From Bacteroidota bacterium (GTDB lineage: Bacteria > Bacteroidota > Ignavibacteria > UBA10030 > SZUA-254): a stretch of DNA of 64,000 nucleotides. The position numbers and the translations under genes were made by a program. The stretch is from assembly GCA_035495255.1 (NCBI GenBank), contig DATJGD010000039.1, positions 54,677 to 118,676 on the forward strand. Reading direction: 5' to 3'. This document shows positions 52,869-59,727 of the stretch, piece after piece; the stretch's first letter is position 1, and every line of letters begins with the position of its first letter. The notes beneath the pieces are model-generated. The model did no database searches. It worked only from the letters and a program-made list of their open reading frames with translations, and was not told the origin of the DNA.

Positions 52869-53258
52869 ATGGCGGAGATAAACGATCTTCACACCCCCGA
52901 ACGTCCGGTTGCAGGATACGTGGCGGTGCAAATCATTACCCTTATCGCCTCGATCATTGCCATTATTTGGGGCGTTGCACTCGCATTCGCGGTCGCGTTC
53001 CCGGGCCCTAGCGGCGAGTGGGCGGCAATGGGAATCTTCTTCGCGTATATCGTAAATTTCCCGGTTGGCGCCATCACACTGGCGCTCGCTCTGGTACTTC
53101 GACGCGGGAGCCCGAAGCTTCGCCGGTTCTGCATCATTACAGCGACCATTGCGCTTCTCATACCCCTTTTGGTACATGCTATCGACCGCTACAACACCCG
53201 GTGGAAATATAAAATCGTAAGCTGTCCGGACACCGCGCTTCCCAGGAATTTTGGTTGA
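52869..53258 (+). CDS. Hypothetical 3-4-TM membrane protein
   Basis: 129 aa; overlaps the GNAT gene start by 8 nt. Confidence 0.4.
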   Translation: MAEINDLHTPERPVAGYVAVQIITLIASIIAIIWGVALAFAVAFPGPSGEWAAMGIFFAYIVNFPVGAITLALALVLRRGSPKLRRFCIITATIALLIPLLVHAIDRYNTRWKYKIVSCPDTALPRNFG

Positions 53259-53697
53259 ACTGATGGCCCTCACCGTCAAGCGGGTGCGCGCATTTGATCC
53301 GATGCTTCTCCAACAACTCTTTTCGGAATCAGGCTCAACAACCATTTCACCGAACCCCGCCTTTTTCGAGGACCGAAAGAACATCCTCCTCGTCGCATAT
53401 GAAGGACTCCGCCCGTGCGGATTCCTCTGCGGATACCTGCTGACGAGTCTGCGTGTACAATCTCCGAAACTGTTTCTTTATTCGATCGATGTCGCGCCCG
53501 AGTACCGGCGCAGGGGAGCAGGAACCCTCCTCATATCGGAGTTGACATCCATCGCCCGGGATAATTCGTGCAGCGAAATATTTGTTCTTTCCAACAAGAG
53601 TAACAACGCGGCAGTCCGGCTCTATGAACGCACCGGCGGAAGGCCGGAAAACCCCGATGATGTGATGTTCGTGTACCGGCTTGAACAGAGTGCATAG
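53251..53697 (+). CDS. GNAT-family N-acetyltransferase
   Basis: Acetyl-CoA-binding motif …VAPEYRRRGAGTLLISEL…NNAAVRLYERTGG. Confidence 0.75.
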   Translation: MVELMALTVKRVRAFDPMLLQQLFSESGSTTISPNPAFFEDRKNILLVAYEGLRPCGFLCGYLLTSLRVQSPKLFLYSIDVAPEYRRRGAGTLLISELTSIARDNSCSEIFVLSNKSNNAAVRLYERTGGRPENPDDVMFVYRLEQSA

Positions 53698-53828
53698 AGA
53701 GCGAGGGCAGGCGGATATTGGAAGACGCGGGAATGGAATGGAAATGTTTCACTGGAGACATACGGGAGGTGAATGTGGATGTGGATTTGGAGTTCGAGTT
53801 CGTATTCCGTATAATTTGCCATCGAGTA

Positions 53829-53855
53829 GGGCGATGGATGCCCAATGACTCCTAC
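53829..53855 (+). ncRNA. Candidate degenerate fluoride riboswitch (crcB-motif-like) element in the crcB leader
   Basis: GGGCGAUGGAUGCCC then AAUGACUCCUAC directly upstream of the RBS/ATG of crcB. Matches the 5' (GGCGAUGG…) and 3' (…AUGAnUCCUAC) conserved blocks of the crcB motif but lacks the internal stem. TATAAT box at 53808-53813. Confidence 0.35.
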
Positions 53856-53869
53856 TGAAAAGGGGAACC

Positions 53870-54262
53870 TTGAAGATGCAGCAAATCTTGTACATCGCCG
53901 CCGGCGGTTCGCTCGGGGCTGTCGCCCGCTACGGCATGGCGGCATATGTTTATCGAATGAGCGCCGGGTCATTTCCCTGGGGAACACTCGTTATCAATCT
54001 TACCGGCTCATTCGTCATCGGAGTTCTTGCGGAACTCTTCGACAACCTCATCGTTCCCTCGATGTGGCGAAGCTTCCTTACCATCGGTTTTCTCGGCGCG
54101 TACACAACGTTTTCTACGTTCACGCTCGAGACGGTCAATCTCATCCACGACGGGGAATTTCGCCTTGCGGCAGGAAATATCCTTGCGAGCAACATCGCCG
54201 GGATACTCCTGGTGCTGTTCGGCATGTATTGCTCCAAATTCATTCTTCGGGCGGCGGCCTGA
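53870..54262 (+). CDS. crcB: Fluoride ion channel Fluc/CrcB
   Basis: 130 aa, 4 TM; …GGSLGAVARY…GTLVINLTGSFVIG…TFSTF… CrcB signature. Confidence 0.85.
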   Translation: MKMQQILYIAAGGSLGAVARYGMAAYVYRMSAGSFPWGTLVINLTGSFVIGVLAELFDNLIVPSMWRSFLTIGFLGAYTTFSTFTLETVNLIHDGEFRLAAGNILASNIAGILLVLFGMYCSKFILRAAA

Positions 54263-54266
54263 GCGC

Positions 54267-54623
54267 ATGAAACTGCCTGAAGACGCCCTTCTCCTTCGCG
54301 TATTCATCGGTGAGTCGGATCGCCATAACGGAAAGCCGCTCTACGAGCAGATTGTCCTGAGAGCGAGGGAGCTGAACCTTGCGGGCGCGACCGTCCTGAG
54401 GGGAATCATGGGCTTCGGCGCCGACAGCCGGATTCACACGGCGAAACTCCTGGAACTGTCGATTGATTTGCCGATCGTCATCGAGATTGTCGATACCGAA
54501 GAGAACATTGATAAACTTCTCCCATTCCTCGATGAAACAGTGACCGAAGGCCTGGTGACACTGGAACGGATGCGCGTTATTGCGTACAGGCATAGCGGAA
54601 ACAAGACAACGTCCACACGATAG
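54267..54623 (+). CDS. DUF190 (PII-like fold) protein, commonly co-encoded with crcB
   Basis: MKLPEDALLLRVFIGESDRHNGKPLYEQIV…GATVLRGIMGFG; starts 5 nt after the crcB stop. Confidence 0.7.
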   Translation: MKLPEDALLLRVFIGESDRHNGKPLYEQIVLRARELNLAGATVLRGIMGFGADSRIHTAKLLELSIDLPIVIEIVDTEENIDKLLPFLDETVTEGLVTLERMRVIAYRHSGNKTTSTR

Positions 54624-54635
54624 CAAAAGGAACCC

Positions 54636-55103
54636 ATGCAATCGAAAGCGAAAACCCCAAAAGAGTACGTCGACTCGCTGCCGGAAGAGCGGAAGAAGGC
54701 GATTTCCGAACTTAGGAAAGTTATCAAAAAGAATCTTCCGAAAGGCTTCGTGGAAGAAATGAGCTACGGAATGCTTGGGTATGTGGTACCTCATTCTCTA
54801 TACCCTCCCGGATACCATTGCAATCCTGAGCTGCCGCTGCCGTTTATGAACATCGCGTCGCAAAAAAACTTCATCTCCGTGTACCATATGGGCGTCTATG
54901 CCGACAAGGCGACGGCGAAGTGGCTTATGACAGAGTACACGAAGCGTACCGGAAAGAAAGTAGACTCCGGAAAAAGCTGCCTGCGGTTTAAGAAGCCCGG
55001 CGATATCCCCTACGAGCTTATCGGAGAGCTTGCTTCACGGATAACGCCGAAGCAATGGATAGCCGCCTATGAAAAACTGTACAAAGGAAAATCGAAGTCG
55101 TGA
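54636..55103 (+). CDS. DUF1801 (YdhG-like) domain protein
   Basis: …KTPKEYVDSLPEERKKAISELRKVIKKNLPKGFVEEMSYGMLGY…. Confidence 0.6.
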   Translation: MQSKAKTPKEYVDSLPEERKKAISELRKVIKKNLPKGFVEEMSYGMLGYVVPHSLYPPGYHCNPELPLPFMNIASQKNFISVYHMGVYADKATAKWLMTEYTKRTGKKVDSGKSCLRFKKPGDIPYELIGELASRITPKQWIAAYEKLYKGKSKS

Positions 55104-55929: not shown

Positions 55930-58900
55930 TTGCGGGGGCATCGTTGGATTCAACGTTCGCTGAAAGGCAGTACGATGAAAAAATTAAAATCGATCCTCAA
56001 TTGCAACCGTCTCGGTTTGCTCGTCATTGCAACATGTCTGGCATCGTCTCTCCTTTTCCCGCAAACGGTAAAATACCGGATCCCGGTGACTGTCACAGAC
56101 AGCGGTATCGTCATATTCTCGCAACGACTCGATGCCGGATTGCACCCCAGCGCGTCCGTATGTATCGACACGATAACCCTTACCGGATTCACCGATCATT
56201 GGAGCGAAAACGACAGCAGCTCGGTACGTGAGATCGAGGGTCCCCCACCCACTCCGGCAACGGATATACGTTTCACATCTTCGTGCATAATACAACCATA
56301 CCTTCAGGACATCCGTCATTTTACAGATACGAACCAGGTTGACACCCTCAAGTTCAGGGTCACCCTCGATGCTACCCACGGCGAAGATTCTGTCGCCGTG
56401 AAATTCCGCTGGCCTCACGTTCTCTCTGAATATGCCGACTCAGTAATTCTTGCAAAGTCAACCGGCGCTGAGCGCTTCAGAATCAATATGACGACCCAGG
56501 ATTCGTTCAGTGTCAGTCACTCGATTAACGCCAACGGAACCTCCTTCGGCACAGTATTGATTATTATCAAAGGGCCTAAAGTCCCGCCGCCACCCCCACC
56601 CCCGGTCACACCGGTCTTTCCGTCGATGGGCGAAGAAGATGTCCCACTGAGTCCGACATTTACATGGAATGCCGCTCCTCAGGCGTACTTCTACAAGTTC
56701 CAGCTTGCGACAGATTCGCTCTTCACAACAATAATTTCATCCAGCGTACCCTCCGGGACATCTGCATCGGTGAGTGGCCTGCAGCAAAACAAGACCTATT
56801 ACTGGCGCGTCCTCGTGAGTAATCCGTATGGGTTCAGCTATTACCAAAATCCGGTTTTGCGGTTCAAAACCCTTATTCTTTTACCGGGTGTGCCGCCACT
56901 CCTATCGCCTGCTGATAATGCAACAGGCATCCCCACATCCGGGACGACGTTGCAATGGGGAACGGCTTTATCCTCCTCTCCGGTAACCTATCACGTCCAA
57001 CTCTCCACCGACCAGAATTTTCTTTCAAATATCGTTGCTGAGGATTCTACACTTTCCGGATTGACTTTTCCGACCCCCGCTTTACAGAATTGCCTTACGT
57101 ATTACTGGCGCGTCCGGGCGAAAAACTCAACCGGTCCAGGCGCTTATTCGGCGGCACGATCGTTCAGAGTGGTGCTCTCAGCAACATCGGTTCCGGTCCC
57201 GCTTTCTCCGCTCAATGGAGCCACCGGAGTGGATCCTTCTCCGGTGCTGCACTGGTCTGTGGATTCGTGTTCTATAGGGTATCATCTTCAGGTTTCACGA
57301 GATGCCGCCTTCACCATGGTATTCATCGATCAGATTTTTTCACTTCCTCAATTGGCCATCGGCCCGTTGGGCCAGGACAGTGTTTATTACTGGAGAGTGA
57401 ACTCTATGAACACGATCGACACGAGCGCGTATAGTGCCGTCGATTCTTTCAAGACCAAACTCCTCCCGGCGGCGGCCCCGGTTCTCGTTTCTCCGGTGAA
57501 CGGAGACTCACTGGTACCGGCTTCAGCAAATATCGTTTGGCATCGCGTGAAGTATGCCACCCGTTATCACCTGCAAATTGCGAACAATCCGTTTTTTGTC
57601 TCACCGTTCGAAAACGACTCGACACTGACGGACACAATGAAAGCGGAGCTTTTGGTTAGCTGCGTCAAATATTTCTACCGGGTGAGAGCGATTAATGATT
57701 CAGGTTCGGCAGGATTCAACAGCGCAGGCGGCAACTTCAGCGTCCTGCACCTTCCCGATGCCCCGGCAGGCGCATCACCTCCGAACGGTTCTCTCGGGAT
57801 TCCTTCGAACACGACGCTCATCTGGACGAGCGATGATTGTGCACGGGCGTTCCGGGTTCAGCTCTCGGGTGACGCCCAATTCACGCAGCTCAGGATCAAT
57901 CAAATGATCGTTGGTATACACTCGCTTGCAATCGGACCCCTTGGATCAGACAGCATGTTCTATTGGAGAATCAAATCCATCAACGCTGTCGACTCAAGCC
58001 AGTTCAGCCTTGTGGATTCGTTCCGGACAACCGGCACCATCAGCGGCATCAAATGGAATGATCTTAATTTTGATGGAATCAGGGATTCGAGCGAACCAGG
58101 GTTAGGAGGCTGGACGATTGAAATCCATGCCGATTCCTGCAGTGGCCCTCTCGTCGCTTCTGATACGACATCGGGCAACGGACAATATACGATCGAACTT
58201 CCGCCCGGCACGTATGGTGTGAAGGAAGTCCTCAAGCCGGGCTACGGCCAATCATATCCGGGCGGTAATTGCTATACCGTCTCGGTCCTTCACAACGTCA
58301 CCAACGTGAACTTCGGAAATTATCTGAAGAACAGTGTCAGCGGTACGACATACCGGGACGCGAACAACAACGGCATCCGCGACAGTGCGGAATCGACGGT
58401 CGACGGATTTGTCATCCGTCTCACCGCGGATAGCGCTCACGGGTACGCCGTCGATTCCGTCGTTAGCGCAAATGGCGGATCGTTCAGCTTTACCGATCTC
58501 TCGCCCGGAACGTACACACTCACGGAGCGCCCCGCCACGGGCTGGACAATCTCCGTGCCGTCCGGCGGAACCTACACCATACCGCTGCTTACGGGGATGT
58601 ATCTCACGGGCAAAGATTTCGGAGATTATTATCTCGGCGACGATTCAACGTATCGAACATGGACGTACGCACAGCTCAGTGCCGATACGGAGAAAAAGCC
58701 GATCAAGGCGCCACGGCCAGGTAAGACGATTCATGTTCCAAACAGCGCAAACCTGGTACGCGATTTGATGAAAACAGACCTCGTGACATTGCCGGTCGGC
58801 TTACCGAACATCCAGATCCCCGGGACCAGAAAAATCAAAGGTTATCTCTACCCCAAGCGACAGGGTGACGTCTTCACAACGTTTAATACGAGGGGTATAA

Positions 58901-59727
58901 AGCATGGCCAATTCGTATTTCCGCCTGCGGGTCCGGGACCGATAGATTTCAACAATAAGCTCAAGAGAATTTATGGGAAAAAAGCTAATCTCACTGCAAA
59001 AGTCCACGATAATATTTTAATGGCGGAGCTCTTGACATTAAAGATCAACCTTGCCGCGAGTAGCCAGCACCGAACGAACCCCGGTTTGGGAAACCTGGAA
59101 TACTATGGCCCAAATAGGATCCAGGGGAGACCATTGATGACCGTTGCAGAGATCGCCAGCTACGGCGATTCCATTATGACAAACTGGGAATCGGTAGATC
59201 CGTCCGCATATCCACAATTGTTTACTATTGTTCATGCGATCAATGGAGCGTTTACGACTCCTACCACTGGCGATACTGCCGCGAATGGCGGATGGTTTAC
59301 AGGAGGCGGACGGCTCAAATGGGTCTCCCCTGTCAAGGTACAGTCTACGGGTATCCTGCAGCAGGCAAAGCAGGGCGTCCGAAATCATCCCCAGGCGCCC
59401 CCGGAGCCTTTTGCAGAAATTCCCGATTATTTTGATCTTGCTCAGAACTATCCTAATCCGTTTAATCCGGTAACGACGATACGGTTCAACCTTGCGGTGC
59501 AATCATTCGTCACGTTGAAAATATACAACGTCATCGGGCAAGAAGTGGCCACGCTGTACGATAACGAGTTGATCGATGCAAGCGAAGGTGAAATCGAATT
59601 CGACGGCACGCATCTTGCCTCCGGAATGTACTTCTATCGTTTGACTGCCACCGGCATCGATGAGGAGAGCGGCCAATCCTCCGCTCAGACGTTTACCAGC
59701 GTCAGGAAAATGCTCCTTATCAAATAA
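55930..59727 (+). CDS. Giant T9SS-secreted adhesin-like protein: 5 FN3-like repeats + 2 SdrD-B/Cna-B-like domains + T9SS C-terminal sorting domain; probable start MKKLKSILN… at 55975
   Basis: Five ~95-aa repeats (P.L.SP.NG…L.W……Y.[LV]Q.S.D..F……YYWRV.A.N); two …NDLNFDGIRDS…GW.I…G.Y.F..L.PGTY… domains; C-terminus …AQNYPNPFNPVTTIRFNLAVQSFVTLKIYNVIGQEVATLY…GMYFYRL…. Confidence 0.8.
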   Translation: MRGHRWIQRSLKGSTMKKLKSILNCNRLGLLVIATCLASSLLFPQTVKYRIPVTVTDSGIVIFSQRLDAGLHPSASVCIDTITLTGFTDHWSENDSSSVREIEGPPPTPATDIRFTSSCIIQPYLQDIRHFTDTNQVDTLKFRVTLDATHGEDSVAVKFRWPHVLSEYADSVILAKSTGAERFRINMTTQDSFSVSHSINANGTSFGTVLIIIKGPKVPPPPPPPVTPVFPSMGEEDVPLSPTFTWNAAPQAYFYKFQLATDSLFTTIISSSVPSGTSASVSGLQQNKTYYWRVLVSNPYGFSYYQNPVLRFKTLILLPGVPPLLSPADNATGIPTSGTTLQWGTALSSSPVTYHVQLSTDQNFLSNIVAEDSTLSGLTFPTPALQNCLTYYWRVRAKNSTGPGAYSAARSFRVVLSATSVPVPLSPLNGATGVDPSPVLHWSVDSCSIGYHLQVSRDAAFTMVFIDQIFSLPQLAIGPLGQDSVYYWRVNSMNTIDTSAYSAVDSFKTKLLPAAAPVLVSPVNGDSLVPASANIVWHRVKYATRYHLQIANNPFFVSPFENDSTLTDTMKAELLVSCVKYFYRVRAINDSGSAGFNSAGGNFSVLHLPDAPAGASPPNGSLGIPSNTTLIWTSDDCARAFRVQLSGDAQFTQLRINQMIVGIHSLAIGPLGSDSMFYWRIKSINAVDSSQFSLVDSFRTTGTISGIKWNDLNFDGIRDSSEPGLGGWTIEIHADSCSGPLVASDTTSGNGQYTIELPPGTYGVKEVLKPGYGQSYPGGNCYTVSVLHNVTNVNFGNYLKNSVSGTTYRDANNNGIRDSAESTVDGFVIRLTADSAHGYAVDSVVSANGGSFSFTDLSPGTYTLTERPATGWTISVPSGGTYTIPLLTGMYLTGKDFGDYYLGDDSTYRTWTYAQLSADTEKKPIKAPRPGKTIHVPNSANLVRDLMKTDLVTLPVGLPNIQIPGTRKIKGYLYPKRQGDVFTTFNTRGIKHGQFVFPPAGPGPIDFNNKLKRIYGKKANLTAKVHDNILMAELLTLKINLAASSQHRTNPGLGNLEYYGPNRIQGRPLMTVAEIASYGDSIMTNWESVDPSAYPQLFTIVHAINGAFTTPTTGDTAANGGWFTGGGRLKWVSPVKVQSTGILQQAKQGVRNHPQAPPEPFAEIPDYFDLAQNYPNPFNPVTTIRFNLAVQSFVTLKIYNVIGQEVATLYDNELIDASEGEIEFDGTHLASGMYFYRLTATGIDEESGQSSAQTFTSVRKMLLIK

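Follow-up and report, generated by a model that had tools for sequence, protein, structure and literature searches.

The window, by which we mean the whole 64-kb stretch of DNA analyzed, carries a series of plus-strand genes in the order GNAT acetyltransferase (53251–53697), crcB, DUF190, DUF1801, and a 186-aa membrane protein, with a 178-nt spacer separating the GNAT gene from crcB. The crcB gene (53876–54262, plus strand) encodes a 128-aa Fluc fluoride channel that matches PF02537 (CRCB) with an E value of 8e-29 and 100.4 bits against a cut-off of 32.9. In a 39-sequence alignment, with the window protein among them, all 23 of 23 invariant columns are present, including the GAYTTFST motif. 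A preliminary description had set the crcB start codon at 53870; that position reads TTG, and the ATG lies at 53876, a start backed by the relatives (128 aa, beginning MQQ...). The DUF190 gene follows at 54267–54623 (plus strand) and matches PF02641 (E 1e-40, 138 bits, cut-off 23.4). It accompanies crcB throughout this clade, adjacent to it in every close relative examined, and the fetched loci bear out both the pairing and its association with the riboswitch; a literature search combining DUF190 and fluoride returned nothing relevant. The gene pair is an ordinary crcB–DUF190 fluoride module. Farther downstream, the gene table of an identical contig lists a 1265-aa secreted protein (55930–59727) with repeated fn3/Ig-like and SdrD_B domains and a C-terminal Por_Secre_tail (type IX secretion), features in keeping with the FCB group or Bacteroidota.

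The element of interest lies on the plus strand at 53829–53855, just 5′ of the crcB ribosome-binding site. Its sequence, GGGCGATGGATGCCC (53829–53843) adjoined by AATGACTCCTAC (53844–53855), is exactly as claimed. The first part corresponds to the 5′ part of a fluoride aptamer and contains the P1 hairpin GGGC-GAUGGAU-GCCC. The second (AAUGACUCCUAC, 53844–53855) corresponds to the aptamer's 3′ tail, with the 3′ strand of the pseudoknot, the linchpin A and U, and a CUCCU anti-Shine–Dalgarno sequence. The element thus occupies the 5′ leader of a fluoride-resistance gene, 20 nt 5′ of the crcB ATG. A Shine–Dalgarno-like, purine-rich AAGGGGA (53860–53866, plus strand) follows 9–10 nt 5′ of the ATG, at the spot where relatives have AAAGGA. 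On the same strand, a TATAAT box (53810–53815) lies 13 nt 5′ of the element, and TTGGAG (53787–53792), a candidate −35 element matching three of six consensus positions, lies 17 nt 5′ of the box. This TTGgag-17-TATAAT arrangement (53787–53815) is a plausible promoter; a sigma-70 consensus scan of 53500–54700 called no promoter. No known regulator site was found in the crcB leader.

Kept and lost features of the fluoride riboswitch

The covariance search of the leader with Rfam RF01734, suggested earlier as a check, was run with permissive settings on 53650–53950. It aligned both ends of the model to 53821–53861 (plus strand), with 20 internal positions skipped, and reached 12.9 bits where the gathering score is 34 (E 0.44 for 301 nt and all 4227 families). 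We also made a custom covariance model, R1, from alignment A2, which comprises 37 intact aptamers located 5′ of crcB homologues. It matched the leader over 53826–53859 (plus strand, whole extent) at 13.2 bits (E 1.7e-4 in 601 nt), compared with 30–70 bits for intact aptamers. Across the whole 64-kb window, Rfam at gathering thresholds returned no riboswitch and R1 returned the 13.2-bit match alone, so no full canonical riboswitch had been overlooked. Among other RNA families, a search of 53650–53950 at Rfam E ≤ 10 returned one meaningless lncRNA match. For this one family, the resemblance of the leader to the fluoride riboswitch is statistically real, beyond chance, yet far below the level of family membership.

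Three of seven testable RF01734 features are found in the leader (P1, tail, and location), and it falls short in the other four (score, pseudoknot, linker with P3, and junction UG). The P1 stem, GGGC/GCCC (GGCG/CGCC in the family), has 4 bp (−7.2 kcal/mol) and encloses a loop with GAUGG; this loop has 7 nt where the family has 8, and next to the aptamers of relatives it is 3 nt shorter. The conserved tail, AUGACUCCUAC at 53845–53855, follows the AUGAYUCCUAC consensus and keeps both the A and the U of the linchpin pair described for the tail of the fluoride riboswitch (PMC8752731). The parts kept are thus the most conserved blocks, GGCGAUGG and AUGACUCCUAC, plus the P1 helix, which may mean that decay is recent or that some selection still acts.

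The losses concern the interior of the aptamer. Model positions 14–16 of R1, the G-U-U half of the pseudoknot 5′ strand, are deleted, and the window pseudoknot is GGA/UCC, three of the six pairs formed by GGnGyU with GrCnCC. Covariation of this pairing is visible among the A2 aptamers, and the six-base-pair pseudoknot has been described as required for fluoride binding (PMC11077080). Model positions 21–40 are also deleted. These 20 positions make up the linker, in which A-CCG is conserved, and all of the P3 hairpin; 37 of 37 intact A2 aptamers have them, and the window element has none. The UG that precedes AUGA (T48 and G49, the CUGAUGA junction) is invariant in A2 and reads CA in the window; in the Thermotoga petrophila structure, the backbone of this UG reportedly helps form the fluoride pocket. 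Three of the 13 invariant A2 columns are therefore missing (G14, T48, and G49), together with the nearly invariant linker bases A25, C27, and G28. On these points—both conserved blocks with a stem that forms, a missing internal hairpin in the RF01734 and R1 alignments alike, and a loop/3′ pseudoknot of approximately 3 bp—our results agree with the preliminary description.

Leaders of related crcB loci

We fetched 172 crcB loci, approximately 65 of which have aptamer matches, and obtained close relatives from a metagenome scan and exact-protein look-ups. A protein search returned many 128-aa CrcB homologues at 55–71% identity to the window protein, some from "Bacteroidota bacterium" MAGs, and one at 98%, with none between 71% and 98%. 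A protein-alignment scan of genome contigs gave, among the matches listed, distant relatives alone (≤50% identity). The 98% homologue (L161/L162) comes from the same strain as the window; its leader is identical base for base, and 3.2 kb of the two sequences differ by 16 substitutions and one 27-nt in-frame indel. Because the element is known elsewhere in L161/L162 alone, neither conservation nor covariation can be judged from its recurrence there.

The differences between these two sequences are unevenly placed. Twelve of the 16 substitutions cluster at 54079–54255 of the window (575–751 of L161), in the 3′ half of crcB, with none in the 574 nt upstream, a distribution that looks like a recombination tract rather than uniform divergence. 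The 27-nt stretch (54583–54609) lies in frame at the DUF190 C terminus (…YRHSGNKTT…) and is missing in L161; DUF190 has 118 aa in the window, 109 aa in L161, and 110–114 aa in relatives.

Intact aptamers that pass the Rfam threshold (38–62 bits) stand upstream of crcB in eight loci (L163, L166, L169, L081, L082, L083, L085, and L086), all among the closest crcB–DUF190 relatives (CrcB identity 50–71%). In the first six, which are the closest, the aptamer ends 17–20 nt 5′ of the same AAAGGA-N-ATG; in L085 and L086, the full aptamer lies 5′ of crcB with a longer gap. The leader of L163 (71% CrcB identity) reads ACGGGCGATGGAGTTCGCCCCGGACCGGCTCGAAGAGTATCGAGTCTGATGACTCCTACCCACAGAAAGGA…ATG and provides the closest comparison. 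Its aptamer begins with the same 10 nt as the window element, GGGCGATGGA, also the aptamer start in the relatives, and the two share the tail ATGACTCCTAC, giving 10 + 11 identical bases. Between these blocks the window has TGCCCA (6 nt) whereas L163 has 36 nt. The window element is therefore homologous to the intact riboswitch and has lost approximately 30 nt. In an MAFFT alignment of whole leaders, the window sequence slid.

Four relatives fail the Rfam threshold, each differently. L164 (2131–2193; 20.7 bits with R1) is full length and keeps P3, with substitutions in GAUGG and in the tail (GGATGATGTAG…CTGAAAACTTTTAT). L168 (1428–1484; 10.9 bits) has lost GAUGG and CCUAC by point substitutions, L172 retains a tail-like trace and no more (about 600–660), and the 44-nt spacer of L171 (409–452) contains nothing aptamer-like. 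The window leader resembles the decayed leaders L164/L165, L168, and L172 in gene pair, position, and sub-threshold score. L164 and L168 are nevertheless full-length sequences with the P3 region whose damage consists of point substitutions in GAUGG and/or the tail, whereas an internal deletion of approximately 30 nt is found in the window alone.

A neighbor-joining tree of CrcB, based on one 128-aa protein and without support values, places the window as sister to the canonical L163, pairs L164 with L172, and sets L168 and L171 beside the canonical L081 and L166. Decayed lineages are thus scattered among intact ones, so decay has been repeated, and the pattern implies at least three independent riboswitch decays in the clade. 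The losses differ from one another in the type of damage, a picture typical of relaxed selection and not of a newly designed function. On the same tree, the window CrcB forms the longest terminal branch of its clade, yet it keeps all alignment-invariant positions.

Among the 172 loci, no other aptamer alignment lacks P3. In the real aptamers among them, at least 31 nt separate the 5′ block from the 3′ block, compared with 13 nt in the window. Three loci of intermediate score, L041, L018, and L138, carry full-length variants whose pseudoknot is GAGGCU/AGCCUC. One further locus, L022 from Candidatus Formimonas warabiya, carries two near-identical fluoride riboswitches on the same strand (1252–1317 and 2287–2351), approximately 1 kb apart, one before crcB and one after.

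Proposed translational control and the state of the window element

The sister loci have no terminator after their aptamers, and the tail lies 10–15 nt from the Shine–Dalgarno sequence. In the predicted folds of L163, L082, and L083, CUGAUGACUCCU pairs with the Shine–Dalgarno region, and blocking the tail in the folding calculation lifts the probability that this region is unpaired from 0.28–0.37 to 0.57–0.67; the effect was obtained in three of six relatives modeled, the other three being uninformative. In these models, the sister loci would fit the known translational type of fluoride riboswitch, of which the examples from Pseudomonas syringae and Burkholderia pseudomallei have been used as translational controls (PMC12667848). 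The likeness consists of a tail near the Shine–Dalgarno sequence, pairing between the two, and no terminator. The window keeps the tail–Shine–Dalgarno geometry; it differs in its broken sensing domain, so that any such pairing would be ligand-independent. Its tail CUCCU can pair with the Shine–Dalgarno AGGGG (5 bp, −4.6 kcal/mol), and a lineage-specific AGUAGG (53825–53830) can instead pair with CCUACU. The predicted accessibility of the Shine–Dalgarno sequence is 0.23–0.36 under three assumed 5′ ends, values that do not tell these pairing states apart.

We think it likely, on comparative grounds, that the element at 53829–53855 is what remains of a fluoride riboswitch and has ceased to sense fluoride. 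The preliminary description had left a choice between a minimal or degenerate fluoride-responsive element and a decayed riboswitch replaced by another control, and decay is the reading that is well supported: intact, Rfam-passing aptamers occupy the homologous position in relatives, and the window copy lacks approximately 30 nt that include the defining features. In the mechanism we envisage, the ancestor would have been a translational ON switch. Without fluoride, its 3′ tail (…UGAUGACUCCU…) would have paired with the Shine–Dalgarno region; with fluoride, the tail would have been locked in a six-base-pair pseudoknot with the P1 loop, freeing the ribosome-binding site. The window lineage would have lost approximately 30 nt, or had them displaced: the linker and P3 hairpin, the UG that precedes AUGA, and one half (the 3′ one) of the pseudoknot strand. 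What is left, a 4-bp P1 hairpin joined straight to the tail, presumably cannot build the fluoride/Mg2+ pocket, and fluoride would for that reason no longer be sensed. Fluoride would then most likely have no control over the crcB–DUF190 pair, whose transcription may depend on the TATAAT box at 53810; we would guess that expression is constitutive and moderate.

With RF01734, the window element shares its position in the crcB 5′ leader, its strand, the 5′ block GGGCGAUGGA with P1, the 3′ block AUGACUCCUAC that contains the linchpin A and U, and common descent with the intact copies of its sisters. It differs in lacking P3, the linker, three of the six pseudoknot pairs, and the invariant UG, and in scoring 12.9 rather than 34 bits. 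It is accordingly a relic of RF01734, not a member of the family: an element of familiar type that has decayed, not a new system. If the relic reading is right, annotation pipelines are correct in rejecting the window copy, and the case cautions that a leader is not a riboswitch just because short consensus words of one occur at the expected place. The clade, one of uncultured Bacteroidota-like bacteria, would have lost its fluoride switch at least three times in different ways, by internal deletion, by point substitutions, and by complete loss, which suggests that these bacteria readily tolerate a fluoride exporter expressed constitutively. These leaders form a small natural series of riboswitch pseudogenization, of modest evolutionary interest, that opens no long-standing question.

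Working-sensor readings and the upstream partial match

An alternative to a vestigial riboswitch is a working sensor without P3, formed either by the truncated element alone or by that element with an upstream GGAGUU strand; from the sequence comparisons, we regard such a sensor in either form as improbable. If it existed, P1, a short pseudoknot, and the tail would suffice for encapsulation of fluoride and Mg2+.

The first form is a minimal aptamer in which the 27-nt element, P1 hairpin plus tail, binds fluoride/Mg2+ through the 3-bp pseudoknot and controls the Shine–Dalgarno sequence. The element does retain its P1 stem, the linchpin A and U, and the two blocks that are most conserved; its CUCCU is still able to pair with AGGGG; and it stands exactly where intact switches stand with respect to crcB. 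It nevertheless scores 21 bits under the Rfam threshold, lacks half of a pseudoknot that fluoride binding is said to require (PMC11077080), has the invariant UG replaced, and has no independent second case in 172 loci, with its blocks 13 nt apart rather than at least 31. The kinds of damage in sister lineages are moreover unrelated to one another, as neutral decay predicts. We judge a minimal aptamer very unlikely, and the suggestion of a minimal fluoride-responsive element, made before the relatives were compared, is not upheld: in addition to its low score, three of the six pseudoknot pairs, P3, the linker, and the UG are gone.

The second form draws on sequence upstream of the TATAAT box. 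The partial match reported there is present as TGGAGTTCG (53788–53796, plus strand) and equals aptamer positions 6–15 of the relatives (the pseudoknot 5′ strand); it starts 41 nt before GGGC, leaving a 32-nt gap rather than the 35 nt first given. A second word, TCGAGT (53822–53827, plus strand), lies directly 5′ of the P1 remnant and equals the 3′ strand of a clade-specific P3 helix, found in the context …TCGAGTCTGAT… in L163, L081, L082, L083, and L164. The two words follow each other as in the aptamer of the relatives, spaced 39 vs. 36 nt, and collinear 8-mer and 6-mer words of this kind arose in 0.7% of shuffles (p ~0.007, post hoc). Local-alignment shuffles of the upstream part gave p values of 0.002–0.08, likewise post hoc. 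Searches with nhmmer gave E values of 0.4–1.2 (6.8 vs. 4.2 bits after artificial excision), and the covariance model with filters off returned isolated 7-nt local matches of 1.8 bits.

A split or rearranged working aptamer at approximately 53783–53855 would join the upstream GGAGUU (53789–53794) to GACUCC (53847–53852) in a 6-bp pseudoknot, with a CCAUC/GAUGG or GUUCGA/UCGAGU helix in place of P3. The full complementarity of these strands, including the usual U-G pair, and the aptamer-like order and spacing of TGGAGTTCG and TCGAGT speak for it. The covariance model, however, sees 7-nt local matches alone; no P1 helix surrounds the upstream GGAGUU; and the GAU of the invariant GAUGG reads UUU there. 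The nhmmer signal is weak, the 9-mer sits within a degenerate hexamer repeat and a hairpin of its own, and the shuffle statistics were designed after the data had been seen. Were transcription to start 3′ of the TATAAT box, the upstream part would lie outside the mRNA. A working split aptamer thus appears highly unlikely, on a par with the minimal one.

For a riboswitch that is a relic, the same words may bear on how it broke. The upstream UGGAGUUCG is a weakly supported candidate for another fragment of the ancestral aptamer, and TGGAGTTCG may be ancestral debris or a chance match. The position of TCGAGT directly 5′ of the P1 remnant hints at rearrangement rather than simple deletion; together with the order and spacing of the two words, it suggests that the ancestral aptamer may span approximately 53783–53855, interrupted between P3 and the tail by an inserted copy of the P1 module (AGGGCGATGGATGCCCA). 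In either history, deletion or rearrangement, the aptamer is noncanonical and broken.

The upstream part has a structure of its own. Positions 53765–53807 form a degenerate hexamer repeat (GGAGGT, GAATGT, GGATGT, GGATTT, GGAGTT, CGAGTT, CGTATT), called by TRF as GGATGT × 4.5 over 53765–53791, with TGGAGTTCG at its end. A hairpin at 53777–53807 (13 bp, −9.5 kcal/mol) contains TGGAGTTCG and is specific to the plus strand because six of its pairs are G-U. A terminator scan flagged this hairpin, which we rejected as a terminator because it is G-U rich and has no U tract.

Least probable of all is a chance resemblance, in which a leader with no relation to the fluoride riboswitch happens to contain two short consensus-like words—a reading that can point to the E value of 0.44 over all Rfam families and to a similar 12-mer, GGGCGATGGATG, that occurs apparently by chance on the minus strand in the GNAT gene—but within the one family in question the match is significant (E 1.7e-4 in 601 nt), it has the same place, orientation, and distance to the Shine–Dalgarno sequence and ATG as the relatives' intact aptamer, and it shares 10 + 11 bases with L163, so that position and synteny have effectively refuted it already.

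The 12-mer in the GNAT gene forms a perfect 12-nt inverted repeat with the leader (GGGCGATGGATG/CATCCATCGCCC; 53546–53557 on the minus strand and 53829–53840 on the plus strand), its arms 271 nt apart, one in GNAT coding sequence and the other in the riboswitch remnant. A gapped alignment extends it weakly to ACTCC and GGG (score 28, p ~0.001 by shuffles, post hoc). The arms could pair if GNAT and crcB were cotranscribed; the repeat is probably due to chance.
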